From Candidatus Aenigmatarchaeota archaeon (GTDB lineage Archaea; Aenigmatarchaeota; Aenigmatarchaeia; PWEA01): a stretch of 30,992 bases of DNA. The notes under the pieces were generated by a model. The model did no database searches. It was not told the DNA's origin and was given only the letters and a program-made list of their open reading frames with translations. Shown one piece after another: positions 1,803 to 25,640 of the stretch (positions within the stretch are counted from its first letter, which is position 1; every line of letters starts with the position of its first letter). The position numbers and the translations under genes are program-made. The stretch lies in assembly GCA_046539285.1 (NCBI GenBank), contig JBKHHH010000005.1, forward strand, positions 1-30,992, in the 5' to 3' direction.

Positions 1803-2573
1803 TCACTTGACTAAAAAATGTTCCAGACACTGTTTTATATTTTCGACTTCCACAACCTTGATCTCTACTTCCTGGCTTATATTTGTTCTCCTCGGTGTGT
1901 ACTCTGTCCTGCAGATATTGAACCTTCCGATCCTGTTGCAGACCTCTTCCCGGTAGTAGTCGGTCTCCACGTTCTGTCCTTCCGGTATCAGTATCTTCTT
2001 GAAGCCCTGTCTTTCCGCAGCCTTTACCTTCTCCAGTACAGATCCCACTCGTCCGATTCTCCCGTTCTCGGTCACGGACCCGGTCATGACCACGCTCTCG
2101 TTTAGAGTTCTGTTCTCGATGGCGGCGATGGTAGCCACAGTCATCGCCCCACCGGCGCTGGGACCACCGACAATGGAGGAGTTGGTGTGTATGGAGTAGA
2201 TTATATTGTACCTGTTGTTTGTGTTCACGTAACCACGGACCACGTAGCTGGCCAGCCTGATCGAGTACTGTGTGTCAACCCAGAAGAAGAGGTTTTCGAT
2301 ATCTACGAGAACCTTTCCTGCCCCAGGTTCGGCCTTGACCCAGATCGGGGTCGCTATCCCGCGCCCATCATCTGTGGCGGCGAGAAGATATGTCTGAACC
2401 GAGCCCGGAATCGTTGCGTTTGTTTCGGTTATTATAGGACCGGGACTGACGTTTTTCACCGTTTCTTCAGAAATCGAGATTGTCCCCAGCTGTGGTTGCA
2501 GCGCGTAGGAAAAGAGCAGACCTGAGAGAAACCCTATTCCTAGAATTGATACGAGAAGAATTTTCTCGCGCAT
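1803..2573 (-). CDS. membrane-anchored Lon-type (S16) serine protease domain protein
   Basis: An N-terminal TM helix (ILLVSILGIGFLSGLLF) is followed by SSIVGGPSAGGAMTVATIAAI (Lon catalytic-Ser motif GPSAG) and a downstream GSVLEKVKAAERQG (candidate Lys). ATG at 2573 is preceded by GTGATC, complementary to the 16S 3' end. The ORF-track start at 2582 is a GTG. Confidence 0.7.
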   Translation of the reverse strand: MREKILLVSILGIGFLSGLLFSYALQPQLGTISISEETVKNVSPGPIITETNATIPGSVQTYLLAATDDGRGIATPIWVKAEPGAGKVLVDIENLFFWVDTQYSIRLASYVVRGYVNTNNRYNIIYSIHTNSSIVGGPSAGGAMTVATIAAIENRTLNESVVMTGSVTENGRIGRVGSVLEKVKAAERQGFKKILIPEGQNVETDYYREEVCNRIGRFNICRTEYTPRRTNISQEVEIKVVEVENIKQCLEHFLVK

Positions 2574-2592: not shown

Positions 2593-2859
2593 GTGCGGGG
2601 AGGTCTGGGTCGACCGTCCGGCGGACAGGGTTGTCCTCTTATCGTCCTCCGTCCTGCTACCTCCCGAACATCGACGAGACCGGCTTAGGGCTGCTCCCGT
2701 CAAGGCCTGACCCGATTCACCGGCCCACCGATCCCGGAAGACAGGACTTCCACGTCGGATAAGCGGGCCCTCTCCGACAGATCGGCCTGGCCAGACTTTC
2801 GACCGCTCTATAGAGGATTTTGAGCTAGAGGCTACCCCTAACAGCCCGGTCTACCCCGC
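2593..2859 (-). ncRNA. signal recognition particle RNA (archaeal 7S-type SRP RNA); ends approximate
   Basis: GC-rich block with no ORF. The minus strand reads GGGUCAGGCCU-UGAC-GGGAGCAGCCCUAAGCC (plus coordinates 2682-2712), which matches the universal helix-8 motif (E. coli 4.5S GGUCAGGUCC-GGAA-GGAAGCAGCC). GGUAGCAGGAC lies further 3' (2651-2661). The 5' GCGGGG and 3' CCCCGC termini are complementary. CUGUUAG near the 5' end resembles the Alu-domain UGUAAU-type turn. A TATA box sits 21-28 nt upstream. Confidence 0.65.
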
Positions 2860-2879
2860 TTTTAAACTTATAAACATTT

Positions 2880-3801: not shown

Positions 3802-4623
3802 TCACCTGACTCTTTCTTCAAGTATTATTTTCCCGTCTCGAAACAGCCGCACCGTCCCGCTCTCGGAGACACAGACGGATATACAGTCGAGCCGCTGTGT
3901 CATGGCCGCACAGGAGTGATGCCTTGCTCCAAGACCCGGGAACTCGACTTCCGATGTATCGATATTGAGGTAGGTGCCGGCCGTGCGTACGAAGCCTTTG
4001 TCGTCCAGCACGAAAACCCCGTCTATCTGGGCAAACTCTTTGATAGTCTCGTTGATTTCCGGGTCCGAGACATTTCTTTTGTCCAGAGGCGAACCGGTGA
4101 AGGGATTGATCACAAGCTGCCGCCCATGTTCCAGTATTTTCTCGTGGTCACCGATTATGAAACCGGTGCCAATGGTCTTACCTTCCCTTCCTTCAGTGGC
4201 TATCTCCCTCGAGACGTTGAGCACTGCTTCCAGAACGGCCCGGTCGACGTCCTCTTCCAGACCGCGCGTCGTCTCTTTGATGAACTCGTCGTCTATCTCG
4301 AAGATCAGAAACAGCCCTTCGAAGCCTTTGCCCAGCGACTCGTCCGTGATGCAGAACACCTTGTCGCCCTGACACAGAAAGCCCTCGTTTACGGCCTCGA
4401 CAAGGATCTCCCGGATCTGGGTGATCGATGTCGGGGGAAGTCTTTTGACCTTGAGCGTCTTCTTGCTGCGAATTATCTTGTCCTCGGTTTCCCTTACTAT
4501 CCGCAGAGAGATCGTGACCTCTTCCTCTTCTTCAGACTCCTTCTTTCTGAGGAAGACTACACAACTCGTCTCCGTCTCCTTGGCTATTTCCGAGGCTGTG
4601 TCGGAAAGGAATCTTTCTAACAT
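3802..4623 (-). CDS. dacZ: diadenylate cyclase (c-di-AMP synthase), archaeal DacZ type
   Basis: The C-terminal DAC domain shows GTGFIIGD, IDGVFVLDDKGFVRTAG and PGLGARHHSCAAMT...SESGTVRLFRDG (the DGA and RHR-type motifs). The N-terminal regulatory domain is about 130 aa, as in DacZ. Confidence 0.75.
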   Translation of the reverse strand: MLERFLSDTASEIAKETETSCVVFLRKKESEEEEEVTISLRIVRETEDKIIRSKKTLKVKRLPPTSITQIREILVEAVNEGFLCQGDKVFCITDESLGKGFEGLFLIFEIDDEFIKETTRGLEEDVDRAVLEAVLNVSREIATEGREGKTIGTGFIIGDHEKILEHGRQLVINPFTGSPLDKRNVSDPEINETIKEFAQIDGVFVLDDKGFVRTAGTYLNIDTSEVEFPGLGARHHSCAAMTQRLDCISVCVSESGTVRLFRDGKIILEERVR

Positions 4624-4986: not shown

Positions 4987-5604
4987 ATGCCGAAGAATAT
5001 AGCCCAGGGCGCCGAAGCCGTTCTCCGTAAGGACGAGTGGGACGGACTGGACAGTCTGGTCAAGGACAGGATCGAGAAGAGCTACAGAGTGGAACAGCTG
5101 GACGAAAAACTTCGCAAGAGCAGGACCAAGCAGGAAGGAAAGCTGCTTTCCGAGGCTCGGCGATCCGGTGTTCCCACACCACAGATCTACGAGATAAAGG
5201 AAACAGTCTTGACCATGGAGTATCTCGATGGCGAGAAAGTACGGGATATGGTCCCCGAGATAGATGCCGAAAGGCGGAAGCAGTTGGCGGAGGAGATCGG
5301 TGAGAAAATCGGGAGACTGCACGAAAGAGGCATCATCCACGGCGACCTGACTACTTCTAACCTGATATTCTGCGACGACGAGGTCTATTTCATCGACTTC
5401 GGACTGGGCTACTTCTCCGATTCGATCGAGGACAAGGCAGTCGACCTTCACCTGATCTGGGAGGTGCTGATCAGCACCCATTCCCGTTACTCGGAGGAGA
5501 TGTGGCAGGCTATCGTCGATGGCTACAAGAATTACAAGGAAGCGGAAAAGGTTCTGAAAAGAGTAAAACAGATAAAAAAGAGGGGTCGTTATGTCGATCG
5601 CTGA
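4987..5604 (+). CDS. bud32: Bud32/PRPK-type atypical kinase (KEOPS subunit), stand-alone
   Basis: 205 aa small kinase with GAEAVL (glycine-loop position), the catalytic loop IIHGDLTTSNLIF, and FIDFGL (DFG). Its size and C-terminal basic tail (KRGRYVDR) are typical of archaeal Bud32. Confidence 0.75.
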   Translation: MPKNIAQGAEAVLRKDEWDGLDSLVKDRIEKSYRVEQLDEKLRKSRTKQEGKLLSEARRSGVPTPQIYEIKETVLTMEYLDGEKVRDMVPEIDAERRKQLAEEIGEKIGRLHERGIIHGDLTTSNLIFCDDEVYFIDFGLGYFSDSIEDKAVDLHLIWEVLISTHSRYSEEMWQAIVDGYKNYKEAEKVLKRVKQIKKRGRYVDR

Positions 5605-6574
5605 CAAGATCCTTGGTAAGGAAAAACTGAAGCGGAAGATCGGAGTTCTCGAGGACAGACTCGAAAGCCTGAAAGAGGAGAAAGAAAGATTGAAGGAGCA
5701 GGCGGACAAGGATCGGAAACGAGCTAAGGAAGCGATATCAGAAAAACAGAACTTGCATGAGAAGATCAATCGCCAGCAGGACAAGATAGAATCACTGAAG
5801 GGAAGGTTAAACCAGGAAGAGATGGTGCGGAACGCCGTCGAAAGCAAGGAAGAGAGACATCGCCTGGGCCGAAAGGATCTCAGATCTTTACTGACTAAAC
5901 TCGGCTCGATGGGGAGCGACCGCGAGGACATGTTCAGCATCTACCTTCCTCCAGGCATGCCGCTGGGCAAACTGGACAGAGAAGGCAGCCTCCGTTCCGA
6001 GATGAAATTAAGCCAGCTGCAACGACTTAAGGACATCGATTCCCGGACAGGTAAGATCATGTTTTACTGCGAAGGACTAGTCGAGATACTGATCAAGCCG
6101 CCGCTCCCGATAGAGGAGGAGACCTGGAAGAGCGGAAACAGTTTTCTGGTTGAACCTCTGGAAGAGCAGCTGGAGGAAAGCGAGATAGGACTGGTTTTCC
6201 TTTCTGCCGGTGGCTCAGGCGTGGCCCGGTTCAACGGCGACGTGAAGACCGTGGTCGTCAAAAGCAGCATCAAGGGCAAGCACAGCAAGGGTGGCTTTAG
6301 CCAGGACCGTTTTTCTCGTCTGAGAGATGAACAGGTCGAAGAACATCTAGATGAAGTGGAAGAAGCGATGAAAGAGCTATGGAGCGAGACACCCGAATAC
6401 GTAGTCCTTTCCGGTTCACAGGAGATGAGAAAGAAGTTTCAGGACAGAAACGTCGAACTTTTTTCCGAGGCGGTGACCTTTGAGAAACCAATGGACTTTT
6501 CCAAGGTTACAAATCAGGAAGGAATGGAAAGGGTAGCCAGTTTCTTCTGGAAGACAGAAGTTACCCAGATCTAG
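5591..6574 (+). CDS. Vms1/ANKZF1-like release-factor (VLRF1, eRF1-fold) protein with N-terminal coiled coil
   Basis: Residues about 1-90 are heptad-like K/E-rich coiled coil. The C-terminal part has IGLVFLSAGGSGVARF followed by IKGKHSKGGFSQDRFSRLRDEQVEEHL. This is the eRF1 GGQ-loop context (GGQSxxRFxRLR) with the loop changed to a GxxQ form, as in Vms1. The ATG overlaps the bud32 stop by 14 nt. Confidence 0.5.
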   Translation: MSIADKILGKEKLKRKIGVLEDRLESLKEEKERLKEQADKDRKRAKEAISEKQNLHEKINRQQDKIESLKGRLNQEEMVRNAVESKEERHRLGRKDLRSLLTKLGSMGSDREDMFSIYLPPGMPLGKLDREGSLRSEMKLSQLQRLKDIDSRTGKIMFYCEGLVEILIKPPLPIEEETWKSGNSFLVEPLEEQLEESEIGLVFLSAGGSGVARFNGDVKTVVVKSSIKGKHSKGGFSQDRFSRLRDEQVEEHLDEVEEAMKELWSETPEYVVLSGSQEMRKKFQDRNVELFSEAVTFEKPMDFSKVTNQEGMERVASFFWKTEVTQI

Positions 6575-7821
6575 TCCTCGTCTATCTCCAGGTCTTTTTC
6601 CTTTCTCGGCTTTTTGACTCTTTTCTCTATGATGAAAACACCTAATGTCGAGATCACTGCAGTTCCGAGGATGATCGAGAAGACAACTTCCGGAAAGATT
6701 TCTGTCCCAGGGATGCCGTATTCGGCGGCCGGTATCGTGGCCAGAACTGCTGCGGCCAGACCACGGGGTGTCATAAAGGCCATAATGCTTCTTTCCAGTC
6801 GGTTGAAGCCCGAGCTTAGACTGGAAAGCTCCACGGAGACGAAGCGGGAGATCAAGATTATAACTGTGAAGACTAGGCCGTATATGAAGAGCTCGGGTTT
6901 ATGCAGCGTGATCAATCCTCCGAGGAACACGAAGAAAAACGTCTTGACGAAGAAGGATATCTGATCCTGGAAGGCCTTCGTTTTTTCCGTGAGTCCGAAA
7001 TACTTTTTCTCGATCTTGAACATGTCCCTGATTTTGCTGCCGTTGCCGAGAACAAGTCCGATCATAAACGAAGATATAGCACCGTTGCCCCCGATCATCT
7101 CGGCTGCCGCGTAGACGAAGAACAGATAGGCTAGGGTGATCATGTAGTGGTATTTCTCACCTTTGATGTGTTGTAATATCTCCAGCCAGAACAGACCCGA
7201 GACGAGTCCGACTACGATTGAAACCGAGAACATGGACACTATCCGGGCCACACCGGGGCTGAGCACTGAGGAGGAAAGACCGACACCGTTGGTACCGACG
7301 ATCAGGTCCATGATGACTATCGCCACAATAATGCATAGAGGGTCGGTGATCACCGATTCTATCTCCAGGGTAAGCCTCGAGTCCTCGGCAAAGCCTTCCA
7401 GTTCCGTCACCACCGGGATTACGATTGCCGAGGAGACGCCACCAACGATCGCACCCAACAACAGGGATTTGAGTGCGGATAAATTAAGCAAGAGGTAGGA
7501 GGCCGCTCCTGTTGATATCATAGCCAGACCGAAACCAGTGACAGCGAGGAGAACGGCCCGGGGCGCCTTTTTCATCATTTTGTAGAGATCTAGATTAAGT
7601 CCGCCATTGAACAGGATCATCAGCAGTGCTATCGATGATATAAAGGGCATCAGCGCTGTAAAATTTTCCCTTGGCAGGAGATTGAAGACCGGGCCCACAA
7701 GCACACCCAGCAGGAGCAAAATAACTATATCTGGAAACTTTGTTTTCCTGAACACGAGGTCGGCGAGGAATCCAATTGCGACAATCGAGGCTATGCTGAG
7801 GAACAGGACTTCCATTTCCAT
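6571..7821 (-). CDS. cation:proton antiporter (CPA1/NhaP-like Na+/H+ exchanger)
   Basis: 416 aa with about 11-12 TM helices, an exchanger-like N-terminus (IASIVAIGFLADLVFRKTKFPDIVILLLLGVLVGP) and a short acidic/basic cytoplasmic tail. Confidence 0.65.
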   Translation of the reverse strand: MEMEVLFLSIASIVAIGFLADLVFRKTKFPDIVILLLLGVLVGPVFNLLPRENFTALMPFISSIALLMILFNGGLNLDLYKMMKKAPRAVLLAVTGFGLAMISTGAASYLLLNLSALKSLLLGAIVGGVSSAIVIPVVTELEGFAEDSRLTLEIESVITDPLCIIVAIVIMDLIVGTNGVGLSSSVLSPGVARIVSMFSVSIVVGLVSGLFWLEILQHIKGEKYHYMITLAYLFFVYAAAEMIGGNGAISSFMIGLVLGNGSKIRDMFKIEKKYFGLTEKTKAFQDQISFFVKTFFFVFLGGLITLHKPELFIYGLVFTVIILISRFVSVELSSLSSGFNRLERSIMAFMTPRGLAAAVLATIPAAEYGIPGTEIFPEVVFSIILGTAVISTLGVFIIEKRVKKPRKEKDLEIDED

Positions 7822-7908
7822 ATTCTAATCTTGATACAGCGGGCATAAATACTATAGGGTTAATTTTAAAAGTCGGACCCAGAAATATCAATTAGAGTGT
7901 GATTTGTA

Positions 7909-8262
7909 ATGGAGGAAGGTGAGACATTCGAGATAGATGAACCGCATTTTCAATGTGTGGTCTGTGAAGAAGAGATCGAGTTCAGTTTTGACGAAGAAGA
8001 CGGTCTGGAACCCGGAGAGATTTCCGAAGAGGTCCGAGAAGAGATCGGCGACGAGTTTATTCCTTCCGAGGAAGACTTCGCCGAGAGCGATGTTGGAATG
8101 GAAGAACCCGGTGTCGAGGGCTCGGAGATGAAGATAATCTGTGACTGCGGAGCTGAATACATTGTCAGAAAGACGCCAGGTGTACCGGGGTTCGAGGTTA
8201 GTCATACCATAGAAAGTGAACCGGAACTGGCTGAGAAAGAGTTCGAGGACCTGGAAAGGTAG
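7909..8262 (+). CDS. extremely acidic split zinc-ribbon protein, hypothetical
   Basis: 117 aa. CVVC (residues 16-19) and CDC (78-80) are separated by a D/E-rich linker. ATG start. The stop abuts the stop of the convergent gene with no spacer. Confidence 0.45.
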   Translation: MEEGETFEIDEPHFQCVVCEEEIEFSFDEEDGLEPGEISEEVREEIGDEFIPSEEDFAESDVGMEEPGVEGSEMKIICDCGAEYIVRKTPGVPGFEVSHTIESEPELAEKEFEDLER

Positions 8263-8628
8263 TCAGGAAGAAAGCGCGACCACTTTGATCACGTTGTTCA
8301 TCTCGTTGACAGGTTGGAAGTTCCAGAGCACATCGGCATCAGTTTGTTCTGATATGCTATTGACTATTTCTGTTGATTTCCAGTAGAGGCCTCTTTCCGC
8401 TTTGATTATCAGGAAGATTCTCTTTGCCTGTCTGAGGTCCATGTTTAGGTTCTTGAGAATTCTTTCCGAACCTGCCGTGGGAAAGGTCTGAACAATGTGG
8501 CTCCGAATTCCATTTTCTATGAAGACGGACATCCTTTCCTGATCAAATTCGGCACCGTTGTTGAATAGACTTTCTACCTCCCTTTTTACTGCGGGATTAT
8601 CGATGTTTGCTAGGAATTCTTCTTTCAT
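8263..8628 (-). CDS. hypothetical protein, last gene of the GTPase array
   Basis: 121 aa from ATG 8628, which has AGGAG 7 nt upstream (the ORF-track start at 8646 is a GTG). No family recognised by eye. Confidence 0.45.
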   Translation of the reverse strand: MKEEFLANIDNPAVKREVESLFNNGAEFDQERMSVFIENGIRSHIVQTFPTAGSERILKNLNMDLRQAKRIFLIIKAERGLYWKSTEIVNSISEQTDADVLWNFQPVNEMNNVIKVVALSS

Positions 8629-8677
8629 AGTTGCTCCTCTCTTCACTCCGGAAGTTGGTGCTTTAAGACTTGGTTTC

Positions 8678-9082
8678 CTAGTCTTTTAAATCTTCCAGAG
8701 AAATAGACTTTTCCTTGCCCTTGGTGAACAGGGAAGGCAGATGGATGAAGTACTTACCATCTCTGATCTCGATGATCAACGGCACCTCTTCGAAAAGTTT
8801 TTTCAGATTTATCTCGTAGACCCCGTCCTCGACGATGCTTATCGATTCCAGATCGAACTCCGTCGCCTGTTTGATCCTCTGCTTGAACTCCTCCTTCTTC
8901 TCGATGTTGTCGATAAACTCTTCTACATCCTGGACCACTGCTTCCCTTTCGTCTTTGTCCATCCTTTTCTTCTTGTCGCTCTTGTACATGAACAGTTTGT
9001 AGCCACAGTTGTTGCAGCCGTCCATCAACTCGTCGGAGTCGTCGTCTATTACTTTACCGCAGTTTAAACATTCGTGGGGCAT
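8678..9082 (-). CDS. Zn-ribbon protein conserved in archaea (DUF2072-like, from memory)
   Basis: The N-terminal ribbon is HECLNCGKV...DGCNNCGYKLF, followed by a K/E-rich middle and a C-terminal globular part. 4 nt downstream of the preceding gene. Confidence 0.55.
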   Translation of the reverse strand: MPHECLNCGKVIDDDSDELMDGCNNCGYKLFMYKSDKKKRMDKDEREAVVQDVEEFIDNIEKKEEFKQRIKQATEFDLESISIVEDGVYEINLKKLFEEVPLIIEIRDGKYFIHLPSLFTKGKEKSISLEDLKD

Positions 9083-9086
9083 TTTA

Positions 9087-9470
9087 TCATTCCAGTTTGG
9101 CCAGAAGGGAGATCTCGTCTTTGTCCTCTTCCAGTTTTTCCATTATATCCGAAGAACCTACGATCAGGAGACCGTCCTTTTGTTTTCTGCCTGTTATAGC
9201 CTGGAACATCTTTTCAAACCAGTTCTGCTTGGGATCGAAACCCGAGAACTCGATGCCCGGGAAGTCGTCGTCGACTTCCTCCATCGACCTTTCGATCAGG
9301 CTTGCCTTCTCTTCAGGTCCGAGTGCTTCTTCCAGAACAAGAATGTTTTCGTCCCGGACCTTGTCCATGATCATCCCGAGCTTGTCGTCGAAGTTCTTTT
9401 CCTTCAGGTTCTCGCGGGAGAGAAACTCTATCTTTATGCCGTCCTTCTTTTTTTTAGCCAATTGATACAC
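9087..9470 (-). CDS. small acidic protein partnered with the GTPase (DUF2073-like, from memory)
   Basis: 127 aa. The GTG start directly abuts the GTPase stop (TAG-GTG, no spacer). I recall an archaeal gene neighbourhood of GTPase, DUF2073 and a Zn-ribbon protein. Confidence 0.5.
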   Translation of the reverse strand: MYQLAKKKKDGIKIEFLSRENLKEKNFDDKLGMIMDKVRDENILVLEEALGPEEKASLIERSMEEVDDDFPGIEFSGFDPKQNWFEKMFQAITGRKQKDGLLIVGSSDIMEKLEEDKDEISLLAKLE

Positions 9471-10091
9471 CTAAGCGACGTGTTTTATGATTTTTGAGTA
9501 TAGATCGGTTATGTTCTCGCCTTCCTTGGCCGAAATGCTGGTGAAGGCGTACTGTGGGAAGGCCTCTTCGATCTTCTCCGGCTCCGCGTCTTCCAGATCG
9601 GTCTTGTTGGCGACCAGGATGATCGGGATGTCTTTGGCCTCCAGGTTGCCGAGAATAGTGACGTTAACCTGAGTATATGGATTTTTGGTCGAATCAAAGA
9701 TAACCAGTACCGCGTCGACGTTGTCCAGCCACTTGATCGCCTCGACGATGCCCTTTGTTGCTTCCTTGCTGCGGACCTTGGCTTCGTCCTCTTCGATGTC
9801 ATGTTCCATGAACTCCTTGTAGTCGACCTTGGTAGAAATCCCCGGCATGTCAAGCAGGTTCATCGAGATCTCCTTGCCGTCGTGTTCCAGCACCACTCTT
9901 TCCTTTTTCTGAACAACTCTCGTTTCGTGGGGAACCTCGGATACGCTGCCCAGTTCTTCACCGGTGAACTCCTCGGAGATCTTGTTGGCGAGGGTCGTTT
10001 TGCCCGTGTTGGGCGGTCCGTAGATACCGAGTTTTATCTCGCCTTTACCGCGAAATAGCTTGCGAAAGAACTGCTTGAGCCAGTTGATCAT
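9471..10091 (-). CDS. P-loop GTPase of the TRAFAC class (Era/EngB-like), function unknown
   Basis: All G motifs are visible: G1 GPPNTGKT, G3 DMPG, G4 NKTD, G5 SAK. The N-terminal 16 aa (MINWLKQFFRKLFRGK) are amphipathic and basic. The region after G3 resembles EngB/Era rather than Ras/Arf. Confidence 0.75.
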   Translation of the reverse strand: MINWLKQFFRKLFRGKGEIKLGIYGPPNTGKTTLANKISEEFTGEELGSVSEVPHETRVVQKKERVVLEHDGKEISMNLLDMPGISTKVDYKEFMEHDIEEDEAKVRSKEATKGIVEAIKWLDNVDAVLVIFDSTKNPYTQVNVTILGNLEAKDIPIILVANKTDLEDAEPEKIEEAFPQYAFTSISAKEGENITDLYSKIIKHVA

Positions 10092-10115
10092 AACAGAATT
10101 AACTTCGAATCACAC

Positions 10116-10124
10116 ATATAAAAA
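10116..10124 (-). promoter_or_regulatory. TATA box for the GTPase module (leaderless-type spacing)
   Basis: The minus strand reads TTTTTATAT about 25-33 nt upstream of ATG 10091. Confidence 0.35.
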
Positions 10125-10128
10125 TCTT

Positions 10129-10623
10129 TTATCCTTTCAGGATCTTGGAATCTACGATGCTCCTCTCTCCGACTTCGAGAAGGAAACATGTCTTCCCGGA
10201 TCCGTCGGCTCCTGTAGCCGAGCCAGGGTTAAAGAGCACCAGGCCCTCCTTTTCGGTCCGGAACGGCTGGTGGCTATGTCCGGTGACGAGTACGTCCACT
10301 TTCATCAGCTCTCCCATCTCGACCAGGTCCTCGATCTCTTCGCCTTCTTCGCTCTCCAGCTGATGTCCGTGGATCATCCCGAACTTCAGGTCCTCAATCC
10401 GGGCGATGTCCTGTTCCGGTAGATCCAGGTAGTCCTCCTCACCGCGAACAATATGAAATTCTTCTGTCGAGTCCATCAGTTTTTCCAGAATCCGCTCGTC
10501 CACGAGGTCGCCCGTGCAGAGAATCACATCCGACTCCCGTGCCGCTTTCATGAACTCCTCCGGAATTTCGTCGCCTTTCCCGGTCAGATGAAAATCGCCG
10601 ATAAGAAGAACTTTCTGGGTCAT
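10129..10623 (-). CDS. MJ0936/YfcE-family metallophosphoesterase, Vps29-like
   Basis: LLIGDFHL, LCTGDL, FHIVRGEEDY, FGMIHGHQ, VLVTGHSHQPF, LFNPGSATGA. These are colinear with human VPS29 as I recall it (VHIVRGDFDEN, IGLIHGHQV, ISGHTHKFEAF, YINPGSATGA). Confidence 0.7.
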   Translation of the reverse strand: MTQKVLLIGDFHLTGKGDEIPEEFMKAARESDVILCTGDLVDERILEKLMDSTEEFHIVRGEEDYLDLPEQDIARIEDLKFGMIHGHQLESEEGEEIEDLVEMGELMKVDVLVTGHSHQPFRTEKEGLVLFNPGSATGADGSGKTCFLLEVGERSIVDSKILKG

Positions 10624-10655
10624 GGTTTACCTCAAGAAGCAATATTTATAATAGT

Positions 10656-11981
10656 TTACATCCCGAGCTTTTTCATCATATTCTGCAGGTTCTTCATCTT
10701 GCCTCTGCCACCACCCTTGAACATCTTCATCGCTTTCCGCGACTGCTTGAACAGCTTGAGCAACTCTGATATTTCCTGGATCTCGGTTCCCGAACCCCTG
10801 GCTATCCTCTCCTTGCGGGAGGAGTTGATCAGCTTGGGATCCTTCTTCTCTTCCTCGGTCATCGAGTTGATGATGTGCTTGAACTTGTGCATCTTTTCTT
10901 CCTGCATGTTGACGAAGCCGTCCGGCAGTTTGGCCATGCTCAGGCCGGGTATCTTGTCCATGACCTTGCTCATCGAGCCCATGGATTCCATCTGCTCGAT
11001 CTGCTCGTAGAAGTCGTCCAGTGTGAAGTCACCTTCCAACATCTTCTTGGCCGTCTCTTCGGCCTCCTCCTGGTCCACCCTTTCCAGCAGACCTTTCAGA
11101 TCGCCGTAGCCGATCAGCTGTGAGACAAACCGCTCGGACTCGTACTTCTCCAGGTCGCGCATCTTCTCTCCGGTTCCGATGAACTTGACCGGCGCGCCGG
11201 TCGCGGCGCAGGCGGAGAGGGCTCCACCACCCTTGGCAGTTCCGTCCATCTTCGTGACAACAACGCCCGTGATCTCCAGTTCCTCCTGGAAACGGCGGGC
11301 CTGTTTTCCGGCCTGTTGTCCCATGTCGGCCGGAATCACGAGAAGCCGTTCGTCGGCGTCCATTATTCTCTCCAGTTCTGTAATCTCGTCGATCATCTCC
11401 TCGTTCAGTGCGTCACGTCCGGACGAGTCGACGATGACCATCTCGAAGTCCTCGGCCTTCTTCATGCTTTCCTTGAGAACTTTGGCCGAATCCTCCTCGT
11501 CCGGGTCGCCGAAGACGGGAACGTCCAGTCTCTCGCCTATCTGTTCCAGCTGTTCGTAGGCCGCGGGTCGGTATGTATCACATGCTATCAGACACGTCTT
11601 CACGCCCCGGTTCTTGTAGTATCGGGCCAGCTTCCCGGCTGTTGTAGTCTTCCCGGAACCGAACGTTCCCATGAGCAAGATTCTGCCCTCCTCCCTCGGA
11701 ACTCCGCCGTCTTCCTTGCCCAGGAACTTGGTCAGCTCCTCATAGACGATGTTGACCACGTGTTCCTTTTCGGTCAATCCGCTCGGCGGTTCCTCCTTCA
11801 GGGCCCGATTCTTTATGGATTCGGTCAGGTCGAAGACCAGCTCCACGTCACAGTCCGCCTGCAAGAGGGCTCTCTGGATGTCTTTGTTCACGTTCTTGAC
11901 GGTTTTTTCATCTATAATACTCCTACCACTGAGCTTACGGACCGTGTCCTTCAGAGAATCGGACAGTTTGTTGAGGACCAT
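10656..11981 (-). CDS. srp54: signal recognition particle protein SRP54
   Basis: NG domain with GTFGSGKTTTAGKLA, DTYRPAA and TKMDGTAKGGGALS. The Met-rich M domain ends in GGGRGKMKNLQNMMKKLGM. Confidence 0.9.
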   Translation of the reverse strand: MVLNKLSDSLKDTVRKLSGRSIIDEKTVKNVNKDIQRALLQADCDVELVFDLTESIKNRALKEEPPSGLTEKEHVVNIVYEELTKFLGKEDGGVPREEGRILLMGTFGSGKTTTAGKLARYYKNRGVKTCLIACDTYRPAAYEQLEQIGERLDVPVFGDPDEEDSAKVLKESMKKAEDFEMVIVDSSGRDALNEEMIDEITELERIMDADERLLVIPADMGQQAGKQARRFQEELEITGVVVTKMDGTAKGGGALSACAATGAPVKFIGTGEKMRDLEKYESERFVSQLIGYGDLKGLLERVDQEEAEETAKKMLEGDFTLDDFYEQIEQMESMGSMSKVMDKIPGLSMAKLPDGFVNMQEEKMHKFKHIINSMTEEEKKDPKLINSSRKERIARGSGTEIQEISELLKLFKQSRKAMKMFKGGGRGKMKNLQNMMKKLGM

Positions 11982-13081: not shown

Positions 13082-13159
13082 TGGCGGGCCTGTCGGGATT
13101 TGAACCCGAGATCTGTTGGTCCGCAACCAACCGTCCTGTCCAGACTAGACCACAGGCCC
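13082..13159 (-). tRNA. tRNA-Arg (anticodon GCG), CCA encoded
   Basis: The minus strand folds as a cloverleaf by hand: acceptor GGGCCUG/CAGGCCC, D stem GUCU/GGAC, anticodon stem GUUGG/CCAAC with loop UU-GCG-GA, T arm UCGGG-UUCAAAU-CCCGA, discriminator G and CCA. No intron. Confidence 0.9.
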
Positions 13160-16890: not shown

Positions 16891-17292
16891 ATGAAGCAGA
16901 TAGATATCGAGGATCCTGCCGTGGAGAAGGTCAGACGTAAAGTAGAGGATGACCGAGGAGCCTCGGCTCTACTTCTCTTCGGGAGCCGGGCCCGGGGAAC
17001 GGAATCGGAAGGCAGCGACATAGATCTCTGCGTGGTTCTCAATCCGGACCTAAAGAAAGACGAAGTCTTCGATAAGACTTTGGAGTACCTATCTCTCGAA
17101 ACGGAGAAAATCGATATCTCTATCTTCCAGAACCTTCCTGTTGTCGTCAAGAAGAAGATCTTTGAGGAAGGGGACATAGTTTTTTCCAAGGACATCGACC
17201 TGGTCTACGATCTGGCCTTCCAGACCATCAAGGAGTATGACGACTTCCGCAAGTATTACGAGGACTACCTCGAGGGTGTTAAAAATGCCTGA
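16891..17292 (+). CDS. MNT-type nucleotidyltransferase antitoxin
   Basis: LLLFGSRARGTESEGSDIDLCVV is the GSxxxG...SDxD minimal nucleotidyltransferase motif. ATTAAAATATC box about 21-31 nt upstream of the ATG. Confidence 0.75.
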   Translation: MKQIDIEDPAVEKVRRKVEDDRGASALLLFGSRARGTESEGSDIDLCVVLNPDLKKDEVFDKTLEYLSLETEKIDISIFQNLPVVVKKKIFEEGDIVFSKDIDLVYDLAFQTIKEYDDFRKYYEDYLEGVKNA

Positions 17293-17695
17293 AAAGAGAG
17301 TACTTGAGAAGATCGATAAACTTGAAGGCTATTTAGACGAGATAGAAGGAGCCATGCCCCTTACCTTTGAGGAATATCGAAAGGGGTATAGAAAAAGAGC
17401 TCTGGAAAGACTCCTTCAGGTGTCGATTGAAACTATTATAGATGTCTGCAACCTCATTCTAAAGGAAGAGAAGTTCGGTGTTCCCAGCGATGAAGAAGAT
17501 GTATTCTCAAAGCTATCTCAAGAGGAGGTTCTGAACGAGTCTCTGGCCGATGCATTGAGGAAGATGAGAGGTTTCAGAAACATCCTAGTTCATAGATACG
17601 GCGAGGTCGATGACAGAAAGGTTTTTAAGTTTTTAGAAAACGAGTTGGATGATTTCTCACTCTTTATATCAAAAATAAAATCCTATCTGAACTAG
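17285..17695 (+). CDS. HepT (DUF86, HEPN-domain) RNase toxin
   Basis: FRNILVHRYGEVD contains the Rx4HxY HEPN motif. ATG 17285 overlaps the MNT gene by 8 nt (the ORF-track start at 17237 lies inside the MNT gene). Confidence 0.75.
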   Translation: MPEKRVLEKIDKLEGYLDEIEGAMPLTFEEYRKGYRKRALERLLQVSIETIIDVCNLILKEEKFGVPSDEEDVFSKLSQEEVLNESLADALRKMRGFRNILVHRYGEVDDRKVFKFLENELDDFSLFISKIKSYLN

Positions 17696-23630: not shown

Positions 23631-23638
23631 TATATAAA
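23631..23638 (-). promoter_or_regulatory. TATA box (TTTATATA) upstream of the S-layer gene
   Basis: Consensus-like TTTATATA on the minus strand, about 125 nt upstream of ATG 23505, implying a leader of roughly 100 nt. A second TATATAAAT lies at 23695-23703. Confidence 0.4.
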
Positions 23639-23782
23639 AGTGACTTGAAACCGTTTCACGCCGCATCCCGGTTAGGACATCAAACCCTTTGTAGTATATA
23701 AATAGTGATTATAGAACATCTAATTGTTACATCGGACTATTGAAACCTTTAATAGGAAAATAAAGCATTTTAAGACAATTTT

Positions 23783-24451: not shown

Positions 24452-24536
24452 CTTATCTAAAACTAACTTCTGGTCCAAATATAAAACATTTTCCAATCCG
24501 ACAAAGCTTTTATTGCCTCGTCGTAATAGTTTAGGT

Positions 24537-25607: not shown

Positions 25608-25640
25608 GACTTTTATATCTGTTTATCCAATTTTTTACCG

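Follow-up and report, generated by a model that had tools for sequence, protein, structure and literature searches.

The closest described relative of the locus analysed here is the ArvABC system of the haloarchaeon Haloferax volcanii, whose proteins OapA, OapB and OapC (HVO_3014, HVO_3013 and HVO_3012) have been renamed ArvA, ArvB and ArvC (Mills et al., PNAS 2024, PMC10927574). In H. volcanii, knockout of arvA reduces extracellular vesicles about 2.9-fold and its overexpression increases them 3.5-fold, while knockout of arvB gives 3.1-fold fewer vesicles and knockout of arvC 1.65-fold more (PMC10927574). The same authors proposed that ArvA works as an Arf-like switch by means of its N-terminal amphipathic helix, with ArvB as a possible guanine-nucleotide exchange factor (GEF) and the zinc-finger protein ArvC as a possible GTPase-activating protein (GAP). 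They counted 1,666 ArvA homologues in 14 archaeal phyla, 7 of them DPANN; in 93% of cases ArvB is the next gene downstream, and in 78% ArvC is no more than two genes away (PMC10927574). Here we describe a locus of this kind in contig JBKHHH010000005.1 (assembly GCA_046539285.1), a stretch of 30,992 nucleotides (nt) that we refer to as the window. The host is a halophilic DPANN archaeon of the GTDB phylum Aenigmatarchaeota, order PWEA01. We read positions 8678-10124 of the window as the orthologue of the arvA-arvB-arvC (oapABC) operon, with the H. volcanii mechanism carried over by inference, and give this reading a probability of roughly 0.8.

A first-pass annotation of this DNA had described an uncharacterised module in which a GTPase, a DUF2073 protein and a DUF2072 protein form a conserved archaeal neighbourhood with no assigned function. 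The neighbourhood is indeed conserved, as detailed below. Its families are those of OapABC/ArvABC, with knockout and overexpression phenotypes in vesicle formation, so that neither "uncharacterised" nor "no assigned function" still applies. The system is already known and close relatives of the locus are already catalogued; because the system has been characterised experimentally, the assignment to ArvABC adds little on its own. What is new here is a corrected arvB start, a clade-restricted SRP54/Vps29 neighbourhood and a fourth gene with a predicted fold like that of the FtsZ C-terminal domain.

The arvABC module and its products

The minus strand of 8263-11981 carries six colinear open reading frames (ORFs), from SRP54 through an ORF of 121 amino acids (aa). 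Within this series, arvA (oapA; 9471-10091, minus strand) encodes a single-domain small GTPase of 206 aa. Its G motifs are intact, as the first-pass annotation had stated: G1 GPPNTGKT (residues 25-32), G3 DMPG (81-84), G4 NKTD (162-165) and G5 SAK (187-189). The amphipathic N-terminal helix that it had pointed out is also present, with residues 1-14 (MINWLKQFFRKLFR) reaching a helical hydrophobic moment of 0.85, the maximum for the protein, and with L12 and F13 invariant across 14 homologues. ArvA scores 62.9 bits against TIGR00231 small_GTP (cut-off 42.5). Its match to the Pfam Arf family (PF00025; 22.8 bits, cut-off 22.3, E 7.2e-5) is marginal, as no single stretch is significant and only residues 121-175 are aligned.

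The two downstream genes encode the partner families. The acidic 124-aa protein of arvB (oapB, formerly DUF2073; 9087-9461, minus strand) matches Pfam PF09846 OapB over profile positions 2-101 of 104 (E 8.4e-22, 77.5 bits, cut-off 27); PF09846 was found in 90 of 90 ArvB homologues, one of which carries the UniRef name "OapB/ArvB family protein". The 134-aa protein of arvC (oapC, formerly DUF2072; 8678-9082, minus strand) covers the whole of Pfam PF09845 OapC (E 3.3e-27, 95.8 bits, cut-off 23), and the CxxC...CxxC ribbon noted earlier is borne out by cysteines 5, 8, 23 and 26 at its N terminus (C5-x2-C8...C23-x2-C26), consistent with a zinc ribbon.

The start of arvB required correction. The longest ORF opens at GTG 9470 and gives a 127-aa protein (9087-9470, pI 4.7), from which the first-pass annotation had derived a 0-nt junction between arvA and arvB. 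In 5 of 6 relatives, however, arvB opens with M/L-AKK 9-10 nt past the arvA stop, and an (A/G)GTG motif is conserved before the start in the loci L002, L004, L008, L011 and L014. The exception is L006, the most distant of the six, where arvB begins with a GTG 1 nt past the arvA stop. The corresponding start codon of the window is TTG 9461, which lies 6 nt behind a Shine-Dalgarno-like AGGTG (9468-9472, minus strand) that overlaps the arvA stop; it yields a protein of 124 aa, the same length as P0130 in our protein collection. Judged by these comparisons, arvB most likely starts at TTG 9461, 9 nt past arvA, rather than at GTG 9470, and the 0-nt junction and the length of 127 aa would be artefacts of choosing the longest ORF. 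The 4-nt junction (TAAA) between arvB and arvC stands as first described.

A search with ArvA returned 3,063 relatives, the closest of which (64-83% identity) come from metagenome-assembled genomes labelled Aenigmatarchaeota, Nanohaloarchaea or MSBL1. The window protein is 83-84% identical to the orthologue in GCA_003550625.1 (L008; GTDB Aenigmatarchaeota, order PWEA01). This genome is listed as ArvA-bearing in Dataset S10 of PMC10927574, and Dataset S11 gives its adjacent ArvA and ArvB genes as _92 and _93.

To assess conservation of the neighbourhood, we scanned GTDB species representatives with an ArvA alignment. At least 577 relatives were found, and the best 80 loci were all from DPANN archaea. 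The window proteins were compared with these 80 loci by tblastn, and the 75 loci with at least 1.2 kb of downstream sequence were counted. ArvB lies immediately downstream of ArvA in 65/75 DPANN species loci and ArvC within 2.5 kb in 70/75, confirming the co-conservation of the partners with the GTPase that had been supposed at first pass. Across the 80 loci (L018-L097), ArvA is 52-77% identical to the window protein, compared with 23-74% for ArvB and 20-58% for ArvC, which drift much faster. Such strong conservation of ArvA next to drifting partners suggests that the switch matters to small-genome DPANN archaea. Many of these archaea live attached to hosts, a way of life in which the budding of membranes or an exchange of vesicles could play a central part.

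An AlphaFold2 model of ArvB, built from 44 sequences, had a predicted local distance difference test (pLDDT) score of 78.8, and a Foldseek search of the PDB with this model returned no significant match (best E-value 0.025). The H. volcanii ArvB model has been published as aligning best with SepF (PMC10927574). Here that alignment was echoed only weakly, with the SepF chains 7al1, 3zie and 6sat at ranks 4, 7 and 18 (E 0.14-0.35, target-normalised template-modelling (TM) score about 0.44). The first-pass annotation had raised a Roadblock/LC7 or longin fold for both the 127-aa and the 121-aa protein, by analogy with MglA/MglB. Structure prediction and Foldseek spoke against this for each, since Roadblock, LC7, MglB and longin were all missing from the top 50 PDB matches of the ArvB model and from those of the 121-aa model.

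Family membership, motifs, operon structure and conservation are what we observed in this organism; each functional step that follows is inferred, the vesicle mechanism from H. volcanii. Transcription would probably run from the TATA-like element at 10116-10124 and produce a leaderless arvABC mRNA, on which translation of arvB and arvC would be coupled across the 9-nt and 4-nt spacers. In its GTP-bound state ArvA would free the N-terminal amphipathic helix, which would insert in the cytoplasmic membrane as proposed for H. volcanii. By homology, insertion of the helix could curve the membrane and lead to the budding of extracellular vesicles. ArvB would serve as the positive factor, a proposed GEF or adaptor, and the zinc-ribbon protein ArvC as the negative factor, a proposed GAP. 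The first-pass guess that the small partners are GAP/GEF-type regulators is the same as the hypothesis published for ArvB and ArvC (PMC10927574).

Several points weigh against the ArvABC reading. The orthology of the window ArvA to HVO_3014 is indirect, running through a genome catalogued in PMC10927574. Evidence for the vesicle role comes from a single haloarchaeon, and Mills et al. themselves cannot say that all members of the ArvA family serve vesicle production (PMC10927574). A GEF role for ArvB and a GAP role for ArvC are hypotheses. The solved structures closest to ArvA by sequence are those of the ribosome-assembly GTPases Der/EngA (E 3.7e-7). Finally, the conservation of ArvA across DPANN phyla is unusual and could hence reflect a role more basic than vesicle release.

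A fourth gene after arvC

Following arvC by 49 nt is a further gene on the minus strand (8263-8628), hereafter g4, which encodes 121 aa and has a predicted FtsZ/tubulin C-terminal-domain-like fold. The spacing and the Shine-Dalgarno lead reported for it in the first-pass annotation are both correct: a Shine-Dalgarno-like GAGGAG (8634-8639, minus strand) stands 5 nt before the ATG. Reading the 49-nt spacer by eye, we saw no strong TATA-like element in it, and g4 would probably be carried on the same transcript as arvABC.

The AlphaFold2 model of g4, built from 9 sequences, was confident (pLDDT 90.2, predicted TM score 0.83). With this model, the top 50 Foldseek matches in the PDB were all FtsZ (E from 1.4e-5, probability 1.00), with query-normalised TM scores of 0.60-0.68 over 100-121 columns. 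The secondary-structure elements of the model run H12-23, H30-39, E42-48, H54-61, E70-77, H79-95, E99-106 and E114-120. This order fits what we take to be the FtsZ succession H7/H8-S7-H9-S8-H10-S9-S10, presumably the C-terminal GTPase-activating domain. The aligned length and the order of the elements point to the C-terminal domain as the part of FtsZ that is matched, and g4 is predicted to be a stand-alone domain that resembles it at the level of fold only.

Sequence comparisons gave no comparable signal. A profile search of the PDB with g4 returned no FtsZ at E <= 10. In hhalign, g4 aligned best with the C-domain of E. coli FtsZ over S8-S10, the segment equivalent to it in topology, and in register, with E 0.39 and a probability of 0.15%. 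A permissive scan with Pfam FtsZ_C (PF12327) was non-significant, reaching E 0.12 in one of nine members of the g4 family. As all three tests were non-significant, we rejected a sequence-level link between g4 and FtsZ. The loop that would correspond to the FtsZ T7 loop is only semi-conserved, with Q47 the sole invariant residue and the acidic residues not clearly kept. Weak matches of g4 to YhbY/CRM (E 0.35 in the PDB, 0.15 in Pfam) were disregarded as chance, and the retrieved loci of relatives contained no FtsZ gene.

The g4 family is tiny and previously unannotated. A word-index search of 5.8 billion proteins found 2 members, and a full HMMER search of 1.84 billion found 7 representatives of 98-131 aa at 22-41% identity; none of the family members had a Pfam match. 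Of 11 distinct contexts of g4, 7 have it directly after arvC on the same strand (the window, L001, L011, L014, L015/16, L017 and L102), and it stands apart from arvC in the other 4 (L012/L013/L100, L098, L099 and L101/L103). On three long contigs among the latter, g4 follows a divergent GHMP kinase or deoxyhypusine synthase gene, and the downstream block of XPD, p117 (described below), Na/H exchanger, VLRF1-like and Bud32 genes is kept. No g4 was found in the 7-kb flanks on either side of the 80 species-representative ArvA loci, so the 121-aa gene is no general member of the neighbourhood as first described (0/80), and in close relatives the gene after arvC is that for histidyl-tRNA synthetase (HisRS).

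These observations bear on whether g4 genuinely belongs to the Arv system of this lineage, as a fourth component that regulates or tethers ArvA, which we regard as possible but somewhat doubtful. In the three most divergent members (22-29% identity) the gap between arvC and g4 is just 3-12 nt, which speaks for genuine operon linkage in some lineages. The same-strand position right after arvC in seven contexts, the Shine-Dalgarno lead without an evident promoter in the window, the confident FtsZ-like model, the agreement of its element order with the FtsZ topology and the S8-S10 register of the hhalign match point the same way. On the other hand, four contexts are not beside arvC, and the retention of the downstream block in three of them means that gene order inherited within one narrow clade could explain the adjacency. 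The gene is also missing near all 80 species-representative loci, with HisRS in its place in close relatives; the likeness to FtsZ is at the level of fold, with a non-significant sequence signal; and the T7-equivalent loop is semi-conserved around a single invariant residue.

If g4 does belong to the system, it might activate the GTPase in trans by supplying catalytic residues as the FtsZ T7 loop does, or might partner with, and dock on, the weakly SepF-like ArvB. The fuller proposal, that some halophilic PWEA01-type DPANN archaea have gained an FtsZ-C-like fourth subunit of the Arv switch that acts on ArvA in one of these ways, is distinctly improbable by our estimate. If true, the regulation of tubulin-family and of Ras-family GTPases would come together in a single machine for membrane remodelling. 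A literature search turned up no description of an FtsZ-C-like gene after arvC. The g4 family offers a concrete candidate for a missing regulator or effector of Arv. At present we describe g4 as a possible lineage-specific accessory gene of the arv operon.

Beside g4 lies another small gene, p117, on the plus strand (7909-8262), which converges on g4 so that the two stop codons abut. It encodes a very acidic 117-aa protein (pI 4.05) with the cysteine pattern Cys16-x2-Cys19...Cys78-x-Cys80 and without a Pfam or NCBIfam match. Wherever enough sequence follows g4, which is the case in seven contexts (L001, L011, L012, L014, L098 and L099 among them), a homologue of p117 accompanies it; such homologues are absent from the 80 loci selected by ArvA. 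We considered p117 as an ArvC paralogue and rejected this, as the two have no similarity.

Promoters and neighbouring genes

The TATA box that had been assigned to the module at 10116-10124 (minus strand) was confirmed as a TATA-like element, TTTTTATAT, 24 nt 5' of the arvA ATG. The 8-nt sequence TTTTATAT occurs five times in the window (1833-1840, 10116-10123, 23632-23639, 24479-24486 and 25611-25618), against 0.52 copies expected, an approximately 10-fold over-representation. Three of the five copies (10116, 23632 and 25611) lie 18-24 nt 5' of start codons. This spacing makes a leaderless-transcript promoter for arvA credible; as far as the sequence can tell, the element implies a leaderless or near-leaderless arvA transcript, and the repeated spacing suggests that most transcripts of this genome are leaderless. 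A search of 7800-10700 for repeats and RNA families found nothing meaningful.

Upstream of arvA, on the same strand, are a MJ0936/Vps29-type phosphoesterase-like gene (10129-10623, minus strand) and the SRP54 gene (10656-11981, minus strand), each with its own TATA-like element. The colinearity of the module with srp54 and the Vps29-like gene, to which the first-pass annotation had drawn attention, is present in the window but is shared only with its closest PWEA01 relatives (L002-L010, L014, L018 and L019). In close relatives, SRP54 is followed by a Yip1-domain gene that is read from the opposite strand and then by Metallophos_2, ArvA, ArvB, ArvC and HisRS. Neither SRP54 nor the Vps29-like gene is a neighbour in a relative of 67% identity, whose closed genome measures 875 kb. 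The restriction to the closest relatives, together with the separate TATA-like elements, points to lineage-level synteny. We therefore rejected a functional srp54-Vps29-arvABC unit as a general rule, since the adjacency occurs in no other species loci.

The Vps29-like protein scores 112.5 bits against TIGR00040 (cut-off 56.25) and 91 bits against Metallophos_2. Its best solved relatives are eukaryotic Vps29 structures (E 1.4e-20), and no MJ0936 or YfcE chain is named among its 19 solved-structure matches at E <= 1e-5. The motifs GDxH, GD, HGH and GHxH are present. Motif III, which in canonical phosphoesterases is GN[HC]D, reads GEED in the window and GE(E/N/K)D throughout the clade. This clade-conserved G-E form recalls the degenerate site of Vps29.

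The Yip1-domain (PF04893) gene of the close relatives encodes a membrane protein and separates SRP54 from the Vps29-like gene, on the strand opposite to theirs (L002 4731-5348, L004 4708-5328, L008 6069-6644). The window is without it and has a 32-nt spacer between 10623 and 10656, suggesting that the gene was lost or never inserted. The Vps29-like gene and, in relatives, the Yip1 gene are tempting to view as eukaryote-like trafficking genes, but as clade-level synteny they should not be over-read. One assembly, GCA_003553585.1, contains two different complete SRP54-Yip1-Vps29-arvABC-HisRS loci, L002 (PWEQ01000030.1) and L009 (PWEQ01000028.1), whose ArvA proteins are 80% and 84% identical to the window ArvA; this bin probably mixes two related populations.

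Other features of the window lie at a greater distance from the module. An archaeal signal recognition particle (SRP) RNA (Rfam RF01857, 113.9 bits) is located at 2593-2861 (minus strand), about 8 kb from the SRP54 gene, and a tRNA gene (Rfam RF00005, 63.4 bits) at 13085-13159 (minus strand). The gene for Bud32, the KEOPS kinase (4987-5604, plus strand), is overlapped at its end by 14 nt by that for a 327-aa protein (5591-6574, plus strand) in which a coiled coil at the N terminus is combined with a VLRF1/aRF1-like release-factor domain, and the two genes keep this synteny in every related contig. At 3802-4623 (minus strand), a gene for a diadenylate cyclase (DAC domain) stands beside an amino-acid-kinase-family gene, and the same pair follows Bud32 in L001. 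Diadenylate cyclase is among the vesicle-associated proteins of H. volcanii (Mills et al., PMC10927574), which is probably a coincidence with respect to the window gene. At 17237-17695 (plus strand) there is a gene for a HepT-like ribonuclease toxin, for which the overlapping upstream ORF 16891-17292 may encode the antitoxin partner.

Other functions considered and comparison with known systems

The family label first given to the GTPase, Era/EngB-like, raises the question of whether ArvA is an Era/EngB/Der-type ribosome-assembly factor followed by small genes that are unrelated or linked to translation. Like those proteins, it has a G domain of the TRAFAC-class MMR_HSR1 type: its best Pfam family is MMR_HSR1, "50S ribosome-binding GTPase", NCBI names its homologues "Era-like GTP-binding protein", and the Der/EngA structures given above are its best solved matches. 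Its neighbours in this lineage include the translation and secretion genes SRP54, HisRS, VLRF1-like and Bud32. Against the NCBIfam equivalogs, however, it scores 51.8 bits for Era (cut-off 237), 51.0 for Der (306.7) and 22.2 for YsxC/EngB (124.45), which is 4-6 fold under every cut-off, and we rejected membership in these families on this ground. With 206 aa, the protein consists of a bare G domain that lacks the accessory KH or second G domain typical of those families, and it carries a membrane-type amphipathic helix. Its conserved gene partners also differ, with a DPANN-wide linkage to OapB/OapC and not to ribosomal genes. Moreover, H. volcanii survives the knockout of arvA, with slightly faster growth and a vesicle phenotype (PMC10927574). 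Taken together, a role in ribosome assembly is very unlikely.

Least probable of all is a chromosome-replication role as an "origin-associated" (Oap) system, for although Pfam still describes the small proteins as origin-associated OapB/OapC and the H. volcanii genes adjoin the main replication origin (PMC10927574), this association is largely refuted by context and was rejected for this locus: no Orc1/Cdc6 or other replication-initiation gene is among the ORFs that we scanned in the 31-kb window, an origin cannot abut the module because its intergenic spacers measure 49 nt at most, the modules of relatives are in varied non-origin contexts, and characterisation of the H. volcanii mutant assigned no replication function (PMC10927574).

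With the ArvABC reading preferred, the locus can be set beside other known systems. MglA/MglB and related systems with Roadblock/LC7/longin regulators also pair a small prokaryotic Ras-superfamily GTPase with small partner genes; they differ in the regulator fold, which was found in neither the ArvB nor the 121-aa model. The C-terminal domain of FtsZ/tubulin bears comparison with g4 only, which shares its order of helices and strands but is a stand-alone protein of 121 aa, without the nucleotide-binding N-terminal domain, without significant sequence similarity and without clearly kept T7-loop acidic residues.

The eukaryotic Arf/Sar1 GTPases provide the functional analogy ("works like") drawn in PMC10927574, in which an N-terminal amphipathic helix freed on GTP binding would engage the membrane and start budding; the zinc-finger ArfGAPs have a counterpart in the zinc-binding negative regulator. 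In contrast to Arf/Sar1, the Pfam Arf similarity of the window GTPase is marginal, neither ArvB nor ArvC is homologous to the Sec7 GEF or ArfGAP domains (PMC10927574), and no coat proteins have been identified.

The closest likeness is to H. volcanii ArvABC itself. The host here is a DPANN archaeon and not a haloarchaeon, and the module is away from a replication origin and has an extra 121-aa gene after arvC. What the two loci share are the same three families in identical order and with tight spacing, comprising a GTPase roughly 200 aa long that begins with an amphipathic helix, a PF09846 protein and a PF09845 protein with a CxxC...CxxC ribbon, and the 83-84% identical orthologue of the window ArvA belongs to a genome in the ArvA catalogue of PMC10927574.

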